Shown here one piece after another: positions 9,354 to 32,000 of a DNA stretch of 32,000 nt. The first letter of the stretch is position 1, and the number at the start of each line of letters is the position of its first letter. The DNA is taken from positions 60,001 to 92,000 of the forward strand of contig NZ_LGHJ01000018.1 of NCBI RefSeq assembly GCF_001306055.1, written 5' to 3'. Made by a program: the position numbers and the translations under genes. The notes under the pieces were generated by a model, which was not told the DNA's origin, searched no databases, and was given only the letters and a program-made list of their open reading frames with translations. The stretch is from Bellilinea caldifistulae. GTDB taxonomy: Bacteria; Chloroflexota; Anaerolineae; Anaerolineales; Anaerolineaceae.

Positions 9354-10034
9354 GTGGATTCGCGTAGTGAAGATCAACCGATTTTGATTGCACAAAGCGG
9401 GCCGCTGAACGGCAAGCGGTGGGATATTTTCGATGGAATGACCATTGGACGGGAAAAGGATTGTGATCTGGTAATTCCAGACCGTCAGGTGTCGCGTTAT
9501 CATGCCCGCTTTGAGGTGCACGCGGATCGAACTGTTCTCCATGATCTTTCAAGTAAAAATGGAACATACCGGAACGGCAAGCGGGTTGAAGAACCGGTTG
9601 TTCTTCAGGATGGGGATGTTGTTCAAATAGCGCTGGTTCAGTACTTTGTCTATCTCAGTTCGGATTCAACTTTACCATTGGGAACTGAATTTGAATTACC
9701 TCTTGAAGAAGCCGAGCAAAAGTTCAACAAACGATTGTTTTTGGATAAGTTATCCCGGCGGGTGTGGGTGAATGGACAGGAACTTTTACCGCCGCTTTCG
9801 GTACCTCAATTTCGGTTACTGGAAGCATTGTATGATAACGAGGGAAAGGTTGTTTCAAGGCAGGAATTGGTCGTCGCAGTCTGGGGGGATGAAGAAGCCA
9901 TAGGTGTCTCGGAACAGGCTCTGGATGCCCTGGTGAGACGTCTGCGGGATCGTCTGGCAGTGTTGGATCCCAATCATGCTTATCTGATTACCGTGCGCGG
10001 ATATGGGTTGCGCTTAGACAATCCTCCGGTTTAA
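9354..10034 (+). CDS. FHA domain + OmpR/PhoB-type winged-helix (Trans_reg_C) transcriptional regulator
   Basis: The track ORF starts at GTG 9210, only 18 nt from the divergent kinase start. I prefer the in-frame GTG 9354, which is preceded by GGAG at 9343-9346 with a 7-nt spacer. The FHA core is GKRWDIFDGMTIGREKDCDLVIPDRQVSRYHARF...SKNGTYRNG. The C-terminal wHTH is PQFRLLEALYDNEGKVVSRQEL...RRLRDRL...ITVRGYGLRL. Confidence 0.85.
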   Translation: MDSRSEDQPILIAQSGPLNGKRWDIFDGMTIGREKDCDLVIPDRQVSRYHARFEVHADRTVLHDLSSKNGTYRNGKRVEEPVVLQDGDVVQIALVQYFVYLSSDSTLPLGTEFELPLEEAEQKFNKRLFLDKLSRRVWVNGQELLPPLSVPQFRLLEALYDNEGKVVSRQELVVAVWGDEEAIGVSEQALDALVRRLRDRLAVLDPNHAYLITVRGYGLRLDNPPV

Positions 10035-10150
10035 TTGAGGAGGGTTGACTGTCTGTATTTCCACATTTTTCAAACTGAAAACTAATTGTAAGTTTGAATG
10101 ATTGATTGCCGACGTGCTTTGATTTAGTATTTAATCAAGAGTTTTCCGCA

Positions 10151-10999
10151 ATGAAGATGGAGTTAGAAGGCGGGAAGATCAACATGATGAAACACTTGCA
10201 GTCGGTACAAAAATCTACTCATCCTAACGAAGCCCATTACTACTCATTCAGACAACCCCTTGCTCTTTCCGGTCACGAAGGCAGCCTGAACGAAACGGCA
10301 TCGGTAGAAAGACATTTTCCCAAGACAACCGGGCTACACAAAACTACTTTATTGGAAGAAAAATGGTTTGGGCCGAGCGTTTGGAAGAGTAAACTCTATG
10401 ATGGCATCCTGCCGGCTTTGGTGATGATCCTGCTTACTTTGTTGTTTAATTTACTTTTTATTCCGGTGGAAGTGCTGTTTGGTACACCGGGACTTCTGAT
10501 TTACACTTTAATCATTCTGGCGGGCGGGGTTTACTCGTTGGGGAAATGTGTTCAGATGCGTTTTGATGAAATTACACGTGCCTGGTATGGTTTGATTGCG
10601 GGGTTGTTGTTGTGGTTCGCCGTCAATACCGCCGGGCGTCTGGGTGAAAGTTCATTCTCAATTGAAGTGGAAGCGGTCATACTGCTTTTGGCGGTGTTGG
10701 TTACTGCCACGCTGTGGAAGACCGTTTTCCCGCTGGGTGTAAGATTTTTGGCGTTTGTATTTTTAGTTGAGTGGACTTTGCGCTTCTGGCTGGAATTGCA
10801 TGTCTTTTTGGCTGAAAGCTTTGAGTTTTTTCAGTGGAGTTATTATCTGAGTGGTTTCATTGCGCTTTCAAGTTTAATCTTTTTTTTGTTATGGATGTTC
10901 CAAAAGGCTGAAAGCCGCATTCATCATCTTTGGGCTGCGGTAGGCGTGTGGTTTTGTACGCTGATGGTTCTAATTGTGTTCTTCCAAATGCCCCTTTAA
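10151..10999 (+). CDS. Hypothetical polytopic membrane protein
   Basis: The long ORF has about 6 hydrophobic helices after a ~90-aa soluble N-terminus. I recognise no family. The start is uncertain: TTG 10106 in the track, ATG 10151 or ATG 10181. Confidence 0.55.
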   Translation: MKMELEGGKINMMKHLQSVQKSTHPNEAHYYSFRQPLALSGHEGSLNETASVERHFPKTTGLHKTTLLEEKWFGPSVWKSKLYDGILPALVMILLTLLFNLLFIPVEVLFGTPGLLIYTLIILAGGVYSLGKCVQMRFDEITRAWYGLIAGLLLWFAVNTAGRLGESSFSIEVEAVILLLAVLVTATLWKTVFPLGVRFLAFVFLVEWTLRFWLELHVFLAESFEFFQWSYYLSGFIALSSLIFFLLWMFQKAESRIHHLWAAVGVWFCTLMVLIVFFQMPL

Positions 11000-11010
11000 G
11001 GAGAACTTGC

Positions 11011-19186: not shown

Positions 19187-19753
19187 ATGGAGATTCAAAC
19201 ATTTTCATATTGCTCTCCAAAATTGGAGTTGCGTCCGTGCCCTGAAAAGGGGGGATTTGGTTTGTTTGCGATTGAGCCAATCAGCGCAGGCGAGCTGTTG
19301 GCTATGTGGGGCGGGCAGGTGGTCACCAGTGAACAACTGCAGTACCTGCCGGTTGACCGCCAGACACACGGCATTCAAATTCATGAAGATCTTTATCTGG
19401 TACCGGTTACTCACGGTGAACCCGCCGATTATTTCAATCATTCCTGTAATCCCAATTGTGGATTGGATTCGCCAATTTCGCTGGTCGCCATGCGGGATAT
19501 TGAAGTGGGGGAGGAAGCCTGCTTCGATTACGCAATGAGCGATTCCTCCGACTATGACGAATTCGAGTGTCACTGTGGAGCCCCTAATTGCCGCAAGACC
19601 ATTACCGGTCGGGATTGGATGCTTCCCGAACTTCAGGAAAGATATTTTGGGTTTTTCTCACCCTATCTTCAGCGGCGGATTGAAAAAATGCGTGAAGAAA
19701 TCCAATTGAAAGGAAATGGCAACAAACCCGCCAATATAACGGACGACCGCTGA
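19187..19753 (+). CDS. SET domain protein (putative protein-lysine methyltransferase) with post-SET Cys cluster
   Basis: 188-aa ORF with a strong RBS (AAGGAG). SET motifs are GFGLFA...I.AGELL, YFNHSCNPNC and EEACFDY. The post-SET motif is CHCGAPNCRK. Confidence 0.85.
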   Translation: MEIQTFSYCSPKLELRPCPEKGGFGLFAIEPISAGELLAMWGGQVVTSEQLQYLPVDRQTHGIQIHEDLYLVPVTHGEPADYFNHSCNPNCGLDSPISLVAMRDIEVGEEACFDYAMSDSSDYDEFECHCGAPNCRKTITGRDWMLPELQERYFGFFSPYLQRRIEKMREEIQLKGNGNKPANITDDR

Positions 19754-23184: not shown

Positions 23185-23679
23185 TCATTCCAGGAAAACA
23201 AAACGGATTTTCCGATTTTGTACATCCATAATGCAGAATGAGCGTTCTTCTTTTCTCAATCCTCCAATTGCCCCCGGGTTTATCAGGCGAGTTTTTCCCT
23301 GCAGTCTATCTTCGCGGCGGTGGCTATGCCCAAAAAACAGAAAATCGAACTGCTGGCTGTGGAGAAGATTCTGGAACTTGGAAGCAAGGTGACCGTGGGT
23401 AACGGCTATTCTTAAACCGCCTATCTCCCCCTGAAAAACGGTATCGGCGAAAGATTCGGGATTCATTTTCAGCAGGGTGTCCCGGATTTCACCGCTGGCA
23501 AAATCACCGTTCCCGAATGTCAAAATGACTTTGTGGGGAGCCAGGATTGAGGCAGTTTCAGCGGTGGTTACGTCTCCACAGTGAATGATGGTCTGGATGT
23601 TCTCATTCTCGATGATTTGCAAAGCCTTTTGCAGATTACCCAGATGGTTGTGAGTATCCGAAAGGATGGCAATTTTCAT
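23185..23679 (-). CDS. YfcE/MJ0936-family metallophosphoesterase
   Basis: 164-aa ORF with calcineurin-like motifs SDTH, HCGD, GNGD, THGH, GHSH. Confidence 0.85.
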   Translation of the reverse strand: MKIAILSDTHNHLGNLQKALQIIENENIQTIIHCGDVTTAETASILAPHKVILTFGNGDFASGEIRDTLLKMNPESFADTVFQGEIGGLRIAVTHGHLASKFQNLLHSQQFDFLFFGHSHRREDRLQGKTRLINPGAIGGLRKEERSFCIMDVQNRKIRFVFLE

Positions 23680-23682
23680 GAC

Positions 23683-25539
23683 TCAAGCAACCTCCAATGA
23701 GACAATCTCAATATCGGCGTTGAGAAAAGCCAGGCGCAGGGCTTCCCGCTTTGTGGAGGTCAGGTTTTTGATCACCAGCCGGATGTAAAAGCTTCCATCC
23801 GGCTGGGTGTCATTGATGGAACGAAGAATGTTGCCGCCAGCCTGCGAAACGAGGTGGGCAATGCGAGCCAGTACACCCGGGCGGTTGGCATTTTTGCTAC
23901 CGGTAATCGAGATGGTTGTCCAATTCAGGTTTTGTTGTGTTATGCCCGCATTGATCAGAGCATCGGCGAAATCCAGTTCGCGAATGGCGCCCGAACCAAC
24001 CGAAGCATACAGGTCTTCCAGACTGGAGGCTGCCAGATTTTCCAGAAGAATATCAAAACGAACCGGATCAAGGACCTGAACATCTTCCAGAGAGAGGATA
24101 CCCTGATTAATCAGAATCGGTTTGATCAATTGGCGTCCTTTTTCGGCGCTTTTTTTTAAGGCTTCGGTAACCAATACCGAGCGCAGCAAGCGAGCGGTGG
24201 AATTGTTGGCGTAGGCAAGCCATTCTTCGTTAGGTGGCTGGCGGGTGCCGTCGGTAATGACTTCCACAACATCTCCTGAATTCACTCGATCCGAGAGACG
24301 CACCAGGGCTCCATTTACTTTGACGGCACTGATTTTATCGAGCAGAAATTCCTGCTGAATTGATGCAACCGCATCCAACACAGTAGAGCCTTCCGGCAGA
24401 AAACGTGCTCCACCGGTGGGGGTCAAAATTTCCACAGGCCGGTAATGGCTGATATCCTTGCCTTTTTGGATGGCATAAACGACACCCCAGTGATTCTCCC
24501 CTTCCATGTCGCGGGTGGCAATGGCAACTTCCACTGCTCCTAAATCCGGCAGCCAGGCGGTAATTTGTAAAGCACGATATCCATTTTGAGGACAGGCAAT
24601 ATAATCATCGAAACGGTTTTGATCCAGATAGGGGCCTAAAAAGCGGTTGACCCGGGGTAACAGCTGATAACAGGCGGCTTCGTCTTCCTCCTCAATGACC
24701 ATGCGGAAACTGATGATGTCATTGACATCCCGAAAGGAATTCATGGAAGTTTTGCGGGCACGAGCCATGCGGCGCAGTTTTTGCCAGGATTGCCAATAGC
24801 CGTTGACGATAATCTCAATCGAGCCATGTAAACCGCTTTTTTCCATGATGGCGCCTAGTTGTTCCATCATTGGGTTGATGAAGTTCAGGTCAAGGCGCGG
24901 GTCAGTATCAATCATTGCCTTAACCGAGGTGTAAGTTTCCGGCTCGGCAAAAGGAAAGGCGAGATCCTCAATCCAACGCCGCCAACGGTAACAATTCAGG
25001 ATGCCGGCCAGTTTTCCATAAGCGCGAATGGCCTCGGTAGCTTTTTGCTGCCGTTTGTGGGCGGGCATGTGATGAAGGGTGAGCAGGTTGTGGCTTTTGT
25101 CGGCCAGCTTGACCAGAAACACACCGGGATCACGGTACTGGGCAATTTTGCGCAAGGTTTCCATTTCTCGTGAACGTCCATCACGCGGGGCGCTGATTTT
25201 GGTTACCCCGTCCACAATAAAGGCGATTTCTTCTCCCAACCGCCCTGGAAAGTGCTGTTTGATGCGCTCTAAACTTTCCCCTTGATCCTCAACGCTATCG
25301 TGCAACAGGGCGGCAATTGTCCAGGCTTCGTTAGCGACCAATTTATCCACGAAGGCGGCTACCCAGGCACAATGGGTTTCAAAATAAGGTTCTCCGCTCA
25401 GACGCAACTGACCGGCATGAAGTTCTTTTCCCCACCGATAGGCTTCCGCAATTGCCGGAGTGCGCGGGACAAATACGCCGGGGTTGAATTCATCATCTAA
25501 CCGCGGTCGAATTTCACGGATATGCTTGATCGTCACCAT
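23683..25539 (-). CDS. Long RelA/SpoT homologue: HD hydrolase + divergent synthetase-like + TGS + ACT domains
   Basis: 618-aa ORF. HD motifs are LSGEPYFETH, LLHDSVED, LADKSHNL. The synthetase-like region (DIISFRMVIEE, DYIACPQNGYRALQ, VEVAIATRDM) deviates from the canonical EVQIRT/SLH motifs. The TGS domain is ILTPTGGARFLPEGSTVLD...VNG. The C-terminal ACT-like segment is RPGVLARIAHLVSQAGGNI. Confidence 0.85.
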   Translation of the reverse strand: MVTIKHIREIRPRLDDEFNPGVFVPRTPAIAEAYRWGKELHAGQLRLSGEPYFETHCAWVAAFVDKLVANEAWTIAALLHDSVEDQGESLERIKQHFPGRLGEEIAFIVDGVTKISAPRDGRSREMETLRKIAQYRDPGVFLVKLADKSHNLLTLHHMPAHKRQQKATEAIRAYGKLAGILNCYRWRRWIEDLAFPFAEPETYTSVKAMIDTDPRLDLNFINPMMEQLGAIMEKSGLHGSIEIIVNGYWQSWQKLRRMARARKTSMNSFRDVNDIISFRMVIEEEDEAACYQLLPRVNRFLGPYLDQNRFDDYIACPQNGYRALQITAWLPDLGAVEVAIATRDMEGENHWGVVYAIQKGKDISHYRPVEILTPTGGARFLPEGSTVLDAVASIQQEFLLDKISAVKVNGALVRLSDRVNSGDVVEVITDGTRQPPNEEWLAYANNSTARLLRSVLVTEALKKSAEKGRQLIKPILINQGILSLEDVQVLDPVRFDILLENLAASSLEDLYASVGSGAIRELDFADALINAGITQQNLNWTTISITGSKNANRPGVLARIAHLVSQAGGNILRSINDTQPDGSFYIRLVIKNLTSTKREALRLAFLNADIEIVSLEVA

Positions 25540-27558: not shown

Positions 27559-30500
27559 ATGGCCGAACTTTCCATACCGGTTACCCGAACCAAGGTCATT
27601 CTCCCTCGACGCCGTGCGGATCTTCTCACCCGACAACGGCTGCTCTCCTATTTGGATGACCTGAGCGAAAACCGGCTGGTGATTATTGCCGCCCCGGCTG
27701 GCTATGGGAAGACGTCCCTTCTGGTAGATTTTGCTCATCAGAATCCCATGCCGGTTTGCTGGCTATCCCTTGACCCAATGGATGCCGAGCCACAGCGGTT
27801 TGTAGCAGGATTGATCGCTGCTCTTCAAGCCGTTTTTCCGGAATTTGGCAGAAACAGTATTCCGGCGTTGAATGGGATGCCTCAGGAACGACTTAATCTG
27901 GAAACACTGGTTTCCTTGATTGTCAATGATATTTATGAGACCATTGATGAGCACTTTATTCTGATCATTGATGATTATCATCTGGTTGAGAATGTACAGG
28001 AAATTAATTACTTTATCAACCGTTTCCTGCTCTTAGCTGATGAAAACTGTCATGTATTCATTTCTTCGCGACGTTTACTTCCCCTGGCCGATATGCCATT
28101 GCTGGTTGCCCGGTCAATGGTGGGTGGTATTGGCTTTGAGGAACTGGCTTTTCAACCCGAAGAGATCCGAAATTTGTATTTGCAAAATTTTGGCATTTCT
28201 TTGTCCGAAAAGCAGGTTGAAGAACTTTCCCGCCTGACCGAAGGATGGATTACGGGGTTGATCCTTTCTACACAAGTAGAAAATGGTCAGCTGAGAACTC
28301 GCTTTCAGGCGAAGAAAGTTTCAGGCGTGAGCATCTATGATTACCTTGCCCAACAAGTTCTTGAGCAACAAAAGAATGACTTGAAACAATTTTTATATCG
28401 AACCTCGCTTTTCGAGGAGTTTGATCGTCAGATTTGCGAGGAAGTTTTGGGGAAAGGTTTGAACCTCCAAATGGACTGGGATCGGTTGATGGAGGAAGTG
28501 CAGCGGAATAATTTATTTGTCTTACCGGTCATCGAGGAAGATCGAATCTGGCTGCGCTACCATCATCTTTTTCGTGATTTTCTACAAAATCGGCTGCTCA
28601 GAGAATATCCCCAAGAAGCTCAGTGCATCCTTAATCGGCTTTCAGCATATTATCAGGAAGTGGGGGAGTGGGAGCGGGCTTATCAAATTTACGAGCGGAT
28701 GGGGGATAAAGAGGCCAAGGCGCGATTGATTGAGCGCGCCGGAACCGTTATGGTCTCTAAAGGGCGAATCATTACGCTTCAGGCCTGGCTGGAGGATTTA
28801 CCATCGCTGTACATTGAGCGATCCCCTTTGTTGCTCTCCATTCAAGGGGCGGTTCGGGTGATGCTTGGGGATGTTCGTAGTGGAATTGAGTCGTTCAATC
28901 TTTCACTAGGTTTGTGCAAAGAAGCGGATGCGACTCTCTACGCGCACACCTTGATTCGTCGTTCGGGAGCTTTTCGAATCCAGGGGGATTATCTTCACGC
29001 TCTGGAGGATGCCGAGAATGCTTTGCAAGTATTATCTCACTTGCCGGGTGAAAAGCATTTATTTGCAACAGGGTTGCATGCCAAAGGAACGGTTTTGCAT
29101 TATCTCGGAAAAATCAACGAATCCTTGAATTGGCTCATTCAAGCCAGAGACATTTTCTTCGATTTGGGTGATGAGGAGTCGGCAGCCAAGGTAGCCATGG
29201 AAATTGCCATGGTGTACCGCTATCTTGGCAACCTCGAACATGCTGAAAAGATCTATAAAGACACGTTATTGTTTTATCAAAGCAGTGGCAACATTGTCTG
29301 GCAAGCCAATTTGTTAAATAACCTTGGTGTACTTCACTCGCTGGCAGGATTATATGAAACAGCCCTGGAAGAACTGGAAAAAGCGATCCAGTATGCCAGA
29401 CTGGGGGGTTATGTCCGGCTGGAAGCCTATGCCCTAACCAGTCTTGGAGATTTGTTCAAGGATGTAGGCGCATTTTTGGAGGCGGAGCAAGCCTATCGAA
29501 AAGCTAATCAATTGACCCAACAGATCGAAGACCAGTTCCTCCGGTTTTATTTAACCCTTGCAAAAAGTGATCTGCTGTTGATTCGCAACCAGATTCAAGA
29601 AGCAGAAAATGAACTGATCACTGCATGGCAGGCGGCAGTAGATGCCGGTTCTCTGTACGAGGAAGCATTGTGTAAATGGGTTTCGGGAAAAATCGCAATC
29701 CTCAAAGAGGATTGGGATACAGCTCGCCGCAATCTCGAAGAGGCGGAAAGTTATTTTTCTCTGGAAAGACATCATGTGGAGGCTATTCGTTGCCGGATGT
29801 TGTTGTTAGCGGTTTATGCCCGCTTACAAAACGAACCCGCATTAATAAGAGGCATGGAAGAGTTATTGCCCGTGGTGCAGGACATCAAATTTCATCACTT
29901 GATTGGCAGCAGCGGAGAACCGCTCGGCAAAGTGTTTCAAGATGAGATGAATCTGCCGGAAGATATACGCGTTCTCTCAGCGCCATTTCTCAAAGTGATC
30001 CGGCAGCACAGCCGGCATTTACCCAATGCCCGAAAACAACTTCGCCAGAAATCGCAGGAAGTTCCGATATCGCCACCGGAATTGACTATTGTGACGCTGG
30101 GCAGAATCCAAATTTCGCTCGGAGACCACATGATTACAGGTATGGAGTGGCGCTCTCAAACAGCCCGTGATTTGATGCTGTTGTTGATGCTTCACCCCGA
30201 AGGTCTAACCAAAGAACAGGTCGGACTGATCTTCTGGCCGGATATCAGTCCGGGTGAATTGAAGATCCGATTCAAGAATACTATTTACCGATTACGCCAC
30301 GCTGCCGGCAAAGATGTGGTGGTTTTTGAAGACGACATTTACTACTTCAACCGCGCCATGGATTACGAGGCGGATTTTGAGACGTTTAATCGCGAAATTC
30401 AACTTGCCGGGCTTGCCCGAAAGCCAGAACAGGAAATTGAGCATTATCGTCATGCGATTGAACTGTATAAAGGCGAATTCTTGCCGGAAATTAACGAGGA

Positions 30501-30828
30501 ATGGGTCGTTGTCGAAAGGGAGCGTCTGCACCAAAAGTACATTACCGCTTTGAGGCGATTGGCCGAGTTGTATCTGGAGACTTCTCAACCGGTGGAAGCG
30601 CTGGCGTTTGCCAATAGATACCTTCAATATGATCCTCTCAATGAAGGTGTTCACCAGCTGATTATGCGATGTTATGCCAGCATGGGGAATGTCAACATGG
30701 TGATCAAGCAATACCAGACATTGAATTTCATACTGGAAAGTGAGCTGGGCGCTCAGCCGAGTCCGCAAACAATCTCACTTTATGATTTACTAACCCGCAA
30801 CCGTCGCAAGACTGAGAACGATCATTGA
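27559..30828 (+). CDS. Large transcriptional regulator: MalT-like STAND NTPase + TPR/SUPR sensor region + C-terminal SARP module (OmpR-type wHTH + BTAD)
   Basis: 1089-aa ORF. The N-terminus (TKVILPRRRADLLTRQRLLSYL...VIIAAPAGYGKTSLL, Walker B ILIIDDYHLV) matches the MalT N-terminal pattern. The middle ~500 aa are TPR-like repeats. The C-terminal ~250 aa contain a wHTH (LGRIQISLGD...WRSQTARDLMLLLMLHPEGLTKEQV...IYRLR) and BTAD (YKGEFLPE...WVVVERERL...L.YDPLNEGVHQLIMRCYASMGN...YQ). Confidence 0.85.
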   Translation: MAELSIPVTRTKVILPRRRADLLTRQRLLSYLDDLSENRLVIIAAPAGYGKTSLLVDFAHQNPMPVCWLSLDPMDAEPQRFVAGLIAALQAVFPEFGRNSIPALNGMPQERLNLETLVSLIVNDIYETIDEHFILIIDDYHLVENVQEINYFINRFLLLADENCHVFISSRRLLPLADMPLLVARSMVGGIGFEELAFQPEEIRNLYLQNFGISLSEKQVEELSRLTEGWITGLILSTQVENGQLRTRFQAKKVSGVSIYDYLAQQVLEQQKNDLKQFLYRTSLFEEFDRQICEEVLGKGLNLQMDWDRLMEEVQRNNLFVLPVIEEDRIWLRYHHLFRDFLQNRLLREYPQEAQCILNRLSAYYQEVGEWERAYQIYERMGDKEAKARLIERAGTVMVSKGRIITLQAWLEDLPSLYIERSPLLLSIQGAVRVMLGDVRSGIESFNLSLGLCKEADATLYAHTLIRRSGAFRIQGDYLHALEDAENALQVLSHLPGEKHLFATGLHAKGTVLHYLGKINESLNWLIQARDIFFDLGDEESAAKVAMEIAMVYRYLGNLEHAEKIYKDTLLFYQSSGNIVWQANLLNNLGVLHSLAGLYETALEELEKAIQYARLGGYVRLEAYALTSLGDLFKDVGAFLEAEQAYRKANQLTQQIEDQFLRFYLTLAKSDLLLIRNQIQEAENELITAWQAAVDAGSLYEEALCKWVSGKIAILKEDWDTARRNLEEAESYFSLERHHVEAIRCRMLLLAVYARLQNEPALIRGMEELLPVVQDIKFHHLIGSSGEPLGKVFQDEMNLPEDIRVLSAPFLKVIRQHSRHLPNARKQLRQKSQEVPISPPELTIVTLGRIQISLGDHMITGMEWRSQTARDLMLLLMLHPEGLTKEQVGLIFWPDISPGELKIRFKNTIYRLRHAAGKDVVVFEDDIYYFNRAMDYEADFETFNREIQLAGLARKPEQEIEHYRHAIELYKGEFLPEINEEWVVVERERLHQKYITALRRLAELYLETSQPVEALAFANRYLQYDPLNEGVHQLIMRCYASMGNVNMVIKQYQTLNFILESELGAQPSPQTISLYDLLTRNRRKTENDH

Positions 30829-30844
30829 TGGCTTCTTAATCAAA

Positions 30845-30864
30845 TGTTAACATTTTGTTAACAT
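30845..30864 (+). repeat. Tandem TGTTAACAT x2 with 11-bp phasing (each unit palindromic around GTTAAC); candidate operator
   Basis: The copies lie at 30845-30853 and 30856-30864, exactly one helical turn apart. They start 17 nt after the regulator stop and sit ~110 nt upstream of the small-peptide gene. Confidence 0.4.
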
Positions 30865-30899
30865 TAAATTGCCCAAAAACAGCCTCAAAACCGGTTTAC

Positions 30900-30919
30900 G
30901 GAAGCCTCTTTGGAAGCCT
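30900..30919 (+). repeat. Direct repeat GGAAGCCT-N4-GGAAGCCT abutting a candidate -10 (TAAACT 30929-30934); candidate activator box
   Basis: The copies lie at 30900-30907 and 30912-30919, a 12-bp period. The 3' copy ends 9 nt before TAAACT, a geometry resembling SARP direct-repeat sites next to -10 elements. Confidence 0.3.
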
Positions 30920-30971
30920 ACCCCTGATTAAACTGGATTTATCCAAACACAAGAAAAAAGGAGAGGCTGAA

Positions 30972-31097
30972 ATGAAAAAGATCAATTCCCGTGTTGTTTT
31001 GTTCGTTCTGACGGTTGCCCTGTATGTTCTGGGTTCTGGTGCACCGGAAGCTGGCGGCGGAATCATCAACAGCATCATCAATTTCCCGGGCTGGTAA
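30972..31097 (+). CDS. 41-aa peptide with signal-peptide-like N-terminus: MKKINSRVVLFVLTVALYVLGSGAPEAGGGIINSIINFPGW
   Basis: ATG 30972 is preceded by a very strong SD (AAGGAGAGG, 30957-30965). The track's 80-aa version starts at TTG 30855 inside the repeat region and is rejected. The peptide has a basic n-region, a hydrophobic core, GSGA, and then a 17-aa tail. Confidence 0.6.
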   Translation: MKKINSRVVLFVLTVALYVLGSGAPEAGGGIINSIINFPGW

Positions 31098-31122
31098 TCT
31101 CCCTCTCAAACTTTTTGCTTGA

Positions 31123-31710
31123 ATGATACTCCTCACAGCCGTCATCGCAGGCCTGACTCTGGGTCTAATTCGAGCAAAAATCGGCAATCGCCCGTACCGT
31201 CCGTTCTCCTTTCGGTGGGGGTGGATGGTGGCGGCGGCGCTCATCCTTCAATGGCTTGCATTTGGTTTTCCGCTTACCCGAACCATTTACCCGGATGAGG
31301 CAGCCAGTATCAGTTTAGTACTTTCACAATCCATATTGCTCATTTTTGCATGGTTCAATCGGAAAATTCCCGGTTTCTGGCTTTTGACCATCGGGCTGGT
31401 GATGAACCTGCTGGTTATCAGTGCCAACGGCGGTTTTATGCCGATCAGCCCAGACACCGTCCAATGGTTGCGCGGAGACGCCGTCACGGCTGGTTGGGAG
31501 GTGGGAGAACGGTTAGGAACGGGAAAAGATGTTGTGTTGCCGGTTGAACAAACCAAACTCGAATTTCTTTCCGACCGTTTCCGAACGCCGGACAACCCCT
31601 ACTATCGGGTTGCCTTCAGTGCAGGCGATGTATTGATTGCTTTGGGTGCATTCTGGTTGTTATGGTCAGTCGGCGGCCGGTTTGAACGAAATTCGGGAAA
31701 GGAGATTTAA
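31123..31710 (+). CDS. DUF5317-like integral membrane protein
   Basis: 195-aa ORF with ~4 TM helices. The motifs VISANGGFMPISPD and FLSDRF...FSAGDVLIALGAF resemble my memory of the DUF5317 (PF17248) signature NGG.MP ... S.GD. It starts 25 nt after the peptide gene. Confidence 0.65.
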   Translation: MILLTAVIAGLTLGLIRAKIGNRPYRPFSFRWGWMVAAALILQWLAFGFPLTRTIYPDEAASISLVLSQSILLIFAWFNRKIPGFWLLTIGLVMNLLVISANGGFMPISPDTVQWLRGDAVTAGWEVGERLGTGKDVVLPVEQTKLEFLSDRFRTPDNPYYRVAFSAGDVLIALGAFWLLWSVGGRFERNSGKEI

Positions 31711-31712
31711 CG

Positions 31713-32000
31713 ATGACACCTACATTGATGGATTCGAGAAAACCCACTTATCGAGATGTTTCGGAAGAATATGGACGTATTCTCACCGCGGCGGTGATCA
31801 GCGCTCAGTTTCGTCAATTGCTGCTCAGCAATCCGGCTAAGGCACTTGCGGCTGGCTTTGGCGGCGAGGCGTTTCACCTTAGCAGTGAGGATCGTTCACG
31901 TCTGGTAGCGATCCGGGCTACCTCTCTGGCTGATTTCGCTTCTCAATTGAGTGGTTACAATGCAAACCGCTCGGTTCAGTCGGCGGTGTGTGGAGATTAG
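31713..32000 (+). CDS. 95-aa RiPP-leader-like peptide (Nif11/NHLP-like helical N-region, short C-terminal tail ...SVQSAVCGD)
   Basis: The ATG follows 2 nt after the DUF5317-like stop, with AAGGAG 10 nt upstream. Stop TAG is 31998-32000, the last bases of the window. AAVISAQFRQLLLSNPAKALAAGF...LSSEDRSRLVAIRATSLADFASQL matches the helical leader style of NHLP/Nif11 and Franean1_4349-type peptides. That match is from memory and unverified. Confidence 0.6.
   Translation: MTPTLMDSRKPTYRDVSEEYGRILTAAVISAQFRQLLLSNPAKALAAGFGGEAFHLSSEDRSRLVAIRATSLADFASQLSGYNANRSVQSAVCGD

Follow-up and report, generated by a model that had tools for sequence, protein, structure and literature searches.

In the RRNPP systems of Firmicutes (Rgg-SHP and ComR-ComS), the gene of a small basic-hydrophobic pro-peptide adjoins that of a transcription factor containing tetratricopeptide repeats (TPRs). 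A locus of comparable outline lies at the right-hand end of the 32,000-nt stretch of the Bellilinea caldifistulae genome analyzed here (contig NZ_LGHJ01000018.1, positions 60,001 to 92,000 of the forward strand; hereafter the window). Its four genes encode a STAND-TPR-SARP regulator (REG), a 41-aa mini-peptide, a DUF5317 membrane protein and a 95-aa protein related to the NHLP leader clan. The cassette is most likely an undescribed membrane signal-transduction module and not an antibiotic-type peptide cluster, because the quartet is followed by signaling enzymes instead of peptide-modifying ones.

As in RRNPP systems, the peptide gene stands behind a promoter plausibly controlled by the regulator. 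However, the would-be receptor, a STAND ATPase of 1089 aa that ends in a SARP module, is not a protein composed of an XRE-type helix-turn-helix (HTH) and TPRs, and the peptides have a conserved transmembrane (TM) helix and a GAGAP hinge. DUF5317, the NHLP-like protein and an HD-GYP protein are co-encoded, with no linked Opp-type importer or Eep/PptAB homologue. The large SARP regulator AfsR shares with REG an OmpR-type winged helix and BTAD combined with a STAND NTPase and TPRs, but the order in REG, NTPase-TPR-SARP, is inverted relative to SARP-NOD-TPR, and the putative target is a Chloroflexota signaling operon, not an antibiotic cluster or afsS. The N-terminal 520 aa of REG align with the MalT equivalog model and include WHD_MalT and TPR_MalT regions, but REG falls well short of the model's cutoff and has a SARP output where MalT has a LuxR-type HTH.

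The remaining genes also recall known proteins. The HD-GYP protein encoded just beyond the window has the full HD...HHExxDGxGYP signature and an N-terminal GAF-like region, as do PmGH-type GAF-HD-GYP proteins and V-cGAP3; it differs from the PmGH type in the weakness of its GAF match and in sharing an operon with a peptide, DUF5317 and an NHLP-like gene. The signals that control HD-GYP enzymes are mostly unknown (bioRxiv 10.1101/2021.11.05.467447). The 95-aa protein has a helical domain of about 60 aa with a sub-threshold relation to the NHLP leader clan of proteusin precursors (TIGR03793, NF038399, PF14407), but it lacks a Gly-Gly cleavage motif followed by a core peptide, its tail is dispensable, no maturase or C39 exporter accompanies it, and fusions of the domain to a membrane protein occur occasionally. 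Small membrane regulators of the MgrB-PhoQ type resemble the mini-peptide as single-TM proteins of about 40 aa, predicted N-in/C-out, that belong to a regulated operon and are proposed to contact a membrane signaling protein. There is no homology, however; the mini-peptide is the first gene of its operon and occurs in up to four copies, and its partner would be DUF5317, not a histidine kinase. The cassette falls outside the definitions of clusters for RiPPs (peptides made by ribosomes and modified after translation), of RRNPP systems and of MalT, and agrees only with the domain-level definition of SARPs, in an inverted architecture.

Organization and conservation of the cassette

A sequence-only reading of the window had proposed a four-gene unit on one strand, and the open reading frames (ORFs) of that unit are present as follows, together with the elements in the gap behind REG:

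27559..30828 (+): REG, a regulator of 1089 aa with a STAND NTPase of the MalT type, a region of TPRs as sensor and, at the C-terminus, a SARP module, from its ORF and hidden Markov model (HMM) matches
30845..30866 (+): TGTTAACATT(T/A) twice (starts 30845 and 30856, spacing 11), each copy with a GTTAAC palindrome, from a repeat search
30897-30908 and 30909-30920 (+): two 12-bp direct-repeat units, TACGGAAGCCTC and TTTGGAAGCCTA, within a near-invariant block; candidate box for the SARP domain of REG
30929..30934 (+): -10-like hexamer TAAACT of a predicted promoter, 8 nt after the 3' repeat unit, from footprinting
30972..31097 (+): mini-peptide of 41 aa, MKKINSRVVLFVLTVALYVLGSGAPEAGGGIINSIINFPGW: basic at the N-terminus, then a TM helix, the hinge GSGAP and a tail of 16 aa
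31123..31710 (+): DUF5317 protein of 195 aa with 5 predicted TM helices (PF17248, E 3e-34)
31713..32000 (+): NHLP-clan helical protein of 95 aa with a conserved core at residues 19-80, from sub-threshold HMM matches; its stop is the last codon of the window

The tight packing attributed to the unit is also real: the gaps are 25 nt and 2 nt, good Shine-Dalgarno sequences precede both small genes (AGGAGAGG before 30972 and AAGGAG before 31713), and the 143-nt gap at 30829-30971 is the sole sizeable intergenic one. Sequence beyond the window end was taken from record DF967971.1 of assembly GCA_001050215.2, of which 10 kb downstream was examined.

Related loci were collected with a DUF5317 profile from GTDB species genomes, which gave 327 relatives. 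The best 80 of the 327, all Chloroflexota, were compared with 10-kb flanks by ORF calling and HMM searches; L001 is the locus that holds the window. The closest relatives in these scans are labeled Bellilinea or Anaerolineaceae. DUF5317 is present in 80/80 of these loci, and an NHLP-like gene lies directly 3' of it in 78. REG lies directly 5' of the cassette on the same strand in 65/80 and is missing mostly where the contig ends; L070, L074, L078 and L086 lack it despite room upstream. An HD-GYP gene is found in 64/80 loci. In this genome's neighborhood, the highest recurrence outside the five cassette genes is that of two ABC transporter ATPase genes (36/80 loci each), and the remaining genes that flank the cassette in this genome recur in 7-16 loci each. 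The cassette core is thus kept while the flanking genes vary, and the cassette is therefore a self-contained module. Non-synteny of the quartet in related genomes had been set beforehand as grounds for refutation; REG, the mini-peptide, DUF5317 and the NHLP-like gene are kept together in nearly all 80 loci, so that refutation fails. The quartet is the conserved core of the cassette.

Signaling genes downstream of the quartet

Because the cassette was cut by the window end, the sequence-only reading had left room for enzymes out of sight. Only one further co-directional gene lies there. After a 94-nt spacer it encodes a 385-aa protein with a weak N-terminal GAF-like region (E 7e-3) and a complete HD-GYP domain (PF13487, E 8e-41). 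The motifs that mark the phosphodiesterase, HDLGK and HHERYDGSGYPYG, are intact, and the best matches in the Protein Data Bank (PDB) are V-cGAP3 (5z7c, E 9e-40), PmGH (4mcw) and PA4781 (4r8z). Beyond the HD-GYP gene are a convergent membrane ORF of 138 aa (L001:12214-12630, minus strand) and then a branched-chain amino-acid ABC transporter. The 138-aa ORF has no family match and lies downstream of HD-GYP in 14/80 loci, all of them closer relatives; it may or may not be part of the cassette. The 10 kb downstream contain no RiPP maturase, C39 exporter or immunity gene, and the compared loci, taken together, show no conserved gene of these kinds; none of them has a conserved maturase or peptidase-exporter. 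The RiPP or bacteriocin cluster that had been suggested for this region is therefore not borne out, whereas a novel peptide-signaling cassette, the other option then offered, agrees better with the evidence.

A palindrome, GGAAACTGTTTCC (L001:10912-10924, about 34-46 nt past the window end), sits in the spacer that separates the 95-aa gene from the HD-GYP gene and is kept in close relatives; L013 and L015 have an analogous CTTCCCTGGAAG. The palindrome may serve within the operon as a protein-binding site or as an element for processing.

When the position after the NHLP-like gene is occupied, the gene is always one for a signaling protein. Usually it is GAF-like/HD-GYP; five loci have another architecture there:

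L029: PAS-GAF-HD-GYP
L098: PAS-HisKA-HATPase
L059: HisKA-HATPase
L052: TM-PAS-GAF
L078: REC-like

More remote loci hold other versions of the cassette:

Firmicutes metagenome-assembled genome (L089-L091): 26-aa peptide MKGAILKVLIALACLLLAGGAFFTWG, MASE9-HD-GYP and DUF5317
Bipolaricaulota (L092:3629-6573 and L097:4068-6564): four or two tandem peptides, a multi-TM HD-GYP protein and DUF5317
Dehalococcoidia (L093): TPR-BTAD regulator, two peptides ending TGADAVWP, DUF5317, NHLP-like protein and HD-GYP
L094: a peptide (...ASGAGGKWS) and DUF5317 only

The Bipolaricaulota loci, which have neither REG nor an NHLP-like gene, are an independent version of the association among peptide, DUF5317 and HD-GYP. 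Their peptide genes were called at ~50 aa, with a core of about 37 aa (MKKLF..YYLLTIATLILVLAENIKWRPDPPTGG), and the peptides end IKW(R/S)PDPPTGG. The NHLP-like protein is present with soluble output proteins and absent in the two lineages whose HD-GYP protein has a membrane domain of its own. One such domain, MASE9, has been argued by Galperin and Chou to sense signals within the membrane (bioRxiv 10.1101/2021.11.05.467447).

Mini-peptide, DUF5317 and NHLP-like protein

A motif search found 77 mini-peptides in 69 of 81 loci, and phmmer matches add four loci. Judged by their shared sequence pattern, the mini-peptides are a new, well-defined family, for which NCBIfam holds no model. In its members, a basic N-terminus is followed by a conserved TM helix (LFVLTLxLFVL), a [G/A/S][A/S]GAP hinge that hardly varies and a short tail rich in Gly. 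The tails are 5-17 aa long (median 8) with 33% Gly, often with xxxG[GST][VIF]G[GRH] or an aromatic last residue; their residues differ among close relatives while the TM segment is fixed. A proline straight after a small-x-small motif blocks signal peptidase I; therefore, a dedicated partner or a membrane-resident state is plausible. Most loci have one copy. There are two in L012 (9651-9977) and L036 (9688-9990) and four in tandem in L063:9377-9997 (Ornatilinea apprima P3M-1) and L078:9324-9919, where all copies in L078 and three of the four in L063 are near-identical. The second copy in L012 (L012b in the alignment) has its own Shine-Dalgarno sequence and lacks the repeat box.

The DUF5317 protein of this locus belongs to PF17248 (118.8 bits, cutoff 25; positions 2-151 of the 151 in the model), a family of 3257 clusters at 50% identity with E <= 0.001. 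Five TM helices are seen in its AlphaFold2 model (pLDDT 83), with a conserved segment of ~65 aa (residues 102-166) between TM4 and TM5. The loops after TM1 and TM3 are basic, from which the positive-inside rule predicts that this segment lies outside and the C-terminus inside. Residues N79, G91, N95, N102, G104, M106, P107, L149, D151, S166, G168 and D169 are invariant across phyla and build the motifs NxGxMP, LxD and SxGD. The LxD/SxGD pair recalls GxGD aspartyl proteases, although the likeness is one of resemblance only. DUF5317 was rejected as a member of the GxGD type (presenilin/SPP, prepilin peptidase), as there was no such Pfam match at E 10 and the Foldseek match to SPPL2a (E 5.1, TM-score 0.22) was not significant. 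Foldseek of the model against the PDB gave no match below E 2, a PDB profile search gave none, and Pfam at E <= 10 returned only DUF5317 itself. NCBIfam has no DUF5317 model, no paper in the library searched names DUF5317, and literature searches found no such cassette described.

The 95-aa protein had been taken for a leader-type precursor, a role for which its sequence is not convincing. It scores below the cutoffs of NF038399, the Os1348 NHLP-clan family (32.2 bits, cutoff 40; E 8e-8), of PF14407 (25.2 bits, cutoff 48; E 2e-5) and of TIGR03793 (12.9 bits, cutoff 50.9). In an alignment of 27 homologues, conservation extends over residues 19-80 and is followed by a tail of ~15 aa that is not rich in Cys, Ser or Thr and usually ends in GD; this tail is missing in 3 of the 27, and the alignment revealed no cleavage motif with a variable or modifiable core peptide. 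The AlphaFold2 model is a five-helix bundle (pLDDT 76). Foldseek matches it, with E about 8-10, to a proteusin precursor and to nitrile hydratase alpha at the latter's N-terminus; these matches are not significant, if thematically consistent. In two proteins, P0252 and P0367, the NHLP-like domain is fused to the C-terminus of DUF5317; the fusions are only suggestive because each is a singleton on one contig. It is proposed that the NHLP-like protein is a cytoplasmic adaptor and not a precursor.

Regulator and candidate promoter box

The NTPase of REG has the Walker A motif GYGKTS. Residues 11-529 match NF003420, the MalT-type NTPase (E 7e-65), at 219 bits against an equivalog cutoff of 537; the middle region matches TPR_12 and TPR_MalT (PF17874), and PF25873 (WHD_MalT) is also present. 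REG therefore has the STAND NTPase, MalT winged helix and TPR-like sensor that characterize MalT-type regulators. HMM searches found no LuxR-type HTH (GerE/LuxR) in the C-terminus. Instead, residues 939-1075 are a BTAD (PF03704, E 9e-22), positions 14-263 of the AfsR model align over residues 827-1076, and the C-terminal 269 aa match the AfsR SARP structure 8hvr (E 1e-4) over a stretch that includes the recognition helix RFKNTIYRLRH. The order, an OmpR-type winged helix followed by BTAD, is the one that defines the SARP family. With its STAND NTPase and C-terminal SARP module, REG does not have the build of an RRNPP receptor, which would have an N-terminal XRE-type HTH or a phosphatase with TPRs only. 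Additional regulators occur in some relatives: L035:1-7850 has a tandem pair of REG paralogues 5' of one DUF5317 cassette, and L048 and L066 have an additional REG-like gene on the opposite strand.

The gap between REG and the mini-peptide gene contains two pairs of repeats, which had been read as helically phased operators. Both pairs are real, and the operator reading is supported for the GGAAGCCT pair (starts 30900 and 30912, spacing 12), which belongs to the 12-bp direct-repeat box and is conserved; its spacing, however, is 12 and not ~10.5, and the TGTTAACAT pair with its GTTAAC palindromes, just 3' of the REG stop, is kept only in the closest relatives, L009-L012. When the 143-nt gap was shuffled, 0.55% of the shuffles contained an exact repeat of 8 nt or more at spacing 10-12, and 0.01% contained two. 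Alignment of close relatives shows the block CGGTTTACGGAAGCCTCTTTGGAAGCCTACCCCTGATTAAACT to be near-invariant across L001-L015 (one substitution, in L012) between variable flanks. L013-L015 have other sequence in place of the GTTAAC pair, which may be a second, lineage-specific operator. Remoter loci have different 10-11-nt repeats at that position, such as AACCAATTTT twice in L030.

The 12-bp period extends through the family. In 65 loci the region upstream of the first mini-peptide gene was searched for repeats. Exact repeats of 7 nt or more with a period of 12 occur in 51 of these loci, against 0.56 expected; the longest exact repeat has this period in 47 of the 65. The commonest unit is TTTGAAGCCTnn, in 2-3 copies, with lineage variants TTTGCATCCTG (2-4 copies) and TCTGTCCCCA (3 copies), and many loci have equivalent -10-like hexamers (TAAACT, TACACT or GATAAT). 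In SARP promoters the direct repeats are spaced by 11 or 22 bp, and 8 bp separate the 3' repeat from the -10 element (PMC10936776). The present repeats, like those, overlap the -35 region. Their distance of 8 bp from TAAACT agrees with the rule, but the period of 12 bp departs from it. The promoter layout thus appears to be SARP-type save for this period. A scan of the operon region for sigma-70 promoters and terminators gave counts not above those of shuffles and no site upstream of the mini-peptide; the putative promoter was instead placed by phylogenetic footprinting. A search of Rfam at E <= 1 over L001 6000-13200 gave no relevant RNA element, such as a c-di-GMP riboswitch.

An 80-aa ORF with a TTG start (30855-31097) was rejected as a gene; its first 39 codons span the promoter box and the 5' untranslated region, and it is the ATG at 30972 alone, together with its Shine-Dalgarno sequence, that relatives conserve. 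Further single GGAAGCCT octamers occur in the window at 19513, 25440 (minus strand) and 29421, for a total of 5 against 1.1 expected; none of these is paired at 12 nt.

Proposed mechanism and alternatives

The gene content, synteny, motif conservation, output swapping and promoter architecture observed in these loci follow the pattern of signal transduction, because there are an invariant peptide-DUF5317 pair, a coupled helical protein, interchangeable outputs and a dedicated activator with its box, and no maturation enzymes. The best explanation overall, although a tentative one, is an input module of peptide and DUF5317 that would feed second-messenger or kinase outputs and would be driven by the adjacent STAND-TPR-SARP activator. 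The input module is rated as new, and the functions suggested for it draw on comparative genomics. The topology, each contact between proteins, the way in which the signal flows and a ligand for REG are inferred, as follows. Activated REG would bind the two 12-bp direct repeats that end 8 bp upstream of TAAACT and drive a single operon for the mini-peptide, DUF5317, the NHLP-like protein and the GAF-like/HD-GYP phosphodiesterase. The 41-aa peptide would insert N-in/C-out, placing the GSGAP hinge and tail at the outer face of the membrane. There, the outward loop of DUF5317 (NxGxMP ... LxD ... SxGD) would recognize the hinge or tail and possibly clip the peptide. The small helical NHLP-like protein would couple the cytoplasmic C-terminus of DUF5317 to the output enzyme's sensory domain (GAF or PAS). 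In this genome the coupling would tune hydrolysis of cyclic di-GMP (c-di-GMP) or a related cyclic dinucleotide, and in other lineages the same input module would feed a histidine kinase.

Several observations weigh against such a module. DUF5317 has no recognizable fold or catalytic family. The operator period is 12 bp and that of canonical SARPs 11 bp. The residues just before the recognition helix of REG differ between loci with GAAGCC-type and GCATCC-type repeats, but this pattern tracks clades; phylogeny confounds the co-variation, and it therefore provides no independent evidence. L034, L054, L069 and L058 have no output gene after the NHLP-like gene despite room for one, and L094 holds only the peptide and DUF5317, so the pair must have a function of its own. 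The DUF5317-NHLP-like fusions could be read-through or assembly artifacts. Finally, two or four identical peptide genes in tandem speak most strongly for a product that is consumed or secreted, more so than for a stoichiometric partner, whereas the conserved TM helix and patterned tail speak most strongly for a resident partner.

A secreted product would be expected if the locus were an RRNPP-like quorum-sensing system, in which the tail is released through processing or export by DUF5317, re-imported and bound by the TPRs of REG for auto-induction, with HD-GYP as a co-regulated output. Such a system is unlikely. In its favor, the peptide gene is directly 3' of a TPR-containing regulator and first behind a REG-type box, and it occurs as tandem identical copies (two in L012 and L036, four in L063 and L078). 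Tails vary among close relatives while the TM segment stays fixed, and DUF5317 has two invariant Asp residues, one of them in SxGD at the start of a TM helix. Streptococcal pro-peptides of the SHP/ComS type have a Lys-rich N-terminus, a hydrophobic stretch and a short C-terminal tail, and the build of the mini-peptide resembles theirs by analogy. However, the TM helix and GAGAP hinge are the most conserved parts, and the tails keep a Gly-rich pattern instead of diversifying freely. The Firmicutes and Bipolaricaulota loci and L094 have the peptide and DUF5317 without REG, no oligopeptide importer is conserved in the cassette among the 80 loci, and REG, with its STAND NTPase and SARP module, is unlike any RRNPP receptor. 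A related proposal combines the two routes: the mini-peptides would be a new class of ribosomal signal, DUF5317 a new kind of juxtamembrane aspartyl peptidase (invariant LxD and SxGD) that clips the GAGAP hinge at the membrane's outer face, and the released tail or the cleavage would be read both by the NHLP-like route to HD-GYP or histidine-kinase outputs and by an auto-inducing REG. This proposal is speculative and rather improbable.

The opposite emphasis, in which the mini-peptide and DUF5317 make up a non-sensory complex, be it a small-subunit complex or one for membrane homeostasis or transport, and the signaling genes regulate it or are merely co-regulated, is improbable as well. It would account for the pair as the deepest conserved core, found without an output gene in L094, L034 and L054, and for the strongly conserved TM helix of the peptide, as expected of an intramembrane partner; but a signaling enzyme is linked to the pair in three phyla, with output domains swapped between lineages, and DUF5317 has just 5 TM helices and no transporter-like fold match. 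That the mini-peptide is a membrane-active toxin or bacteriocin, with DUF5317 for immunity or export, is very improbable. A small hydrophobic peptide, sometimes in tandem arrays, does adjoin a multi-pass membrane protein, and its promoter appears to be strongly regulated. On the other hand, there is no double-glycine leader, no ABC/C39 exporter and no PADLOC or PHROGs match; the cassette is chromosomal and vertically conserved, the peptide is under purifying selection, and the linkage to HD-GYP or histidine-kinase genes is consistent. Hardly any credence is left for a RiPP cluster in which the NHLP-like protein, the mini-peptide or both are precursors modified by unseen or novel enzymes. The NHLP-clan HMM matches noted above and the non-significant structural likeness to nitrile hydratase alpha and a proteusin precursor would suit it, as would small peptide genes in multiple copies. 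Both HMM matches are under the curated cutoffs, however, and among the 80 loci there is no conserved gene for a radical-SAM, YcaO, lanthipeptide synthetase, ATP-grasp or C39-ABC protein. The NHLP-like protein is conserved at residues 19-80, and its short tail is not Cys/Ser/Thr-rich and can be absent. The loop of DUF5317, the only candidate enzyme, is predicted to be extracellular, and the NHLP-like protein has no export signal. A role in anti-phage defense or an origin from phage was rejected, with only generic TPR and HD matches in PADLOC and none in PHROGs.

Implications

An input module of peptide and DUF5317 would place DUF5317 in a setting open to tests: it would be the membrane protein that partners a new family of mini-peptides and is tied, in three or more phyla, to outputs of the c-di-GMP or histidine-kinase type. 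For the second-messenger field, it would be a new multi-protein input module for HD-GYP enzymes. For the genome mining of RiPPs the cassette is a caution, since NHLP-clan matches in such a context are probably not precursors. Chloroflexota gain a candidate peptide-based signaling circuit with a defined promoter box, and cultured Anaerolineae are among its carriers, including Ornatilinea apprima with its four tandem peptide genes. If the proposal that combines both routes holds, the cassette would be the first described case of cell-cell peptide signaling in Chloroflexota and would reveal the first non-RiPP, adaptor role of an NHLP-type domain.

Neighboring features of the window

Upstream of REG by 2-4 kb, the window encodes a homologue of RelA/SpoT-family (p)ppGpp synthetases/hydrolases (23683-25539, minus strand) and a metallophosphoesterase (23185-23679, minus strand). 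This neighborhood is common to the closest relatives only (12-16/80 loci). Elsewhere in the window, the G+C content falls to 0.436 at 10001-11000, against about 0.50 in the remainder, with a strongly negative AT skew (-0.21).

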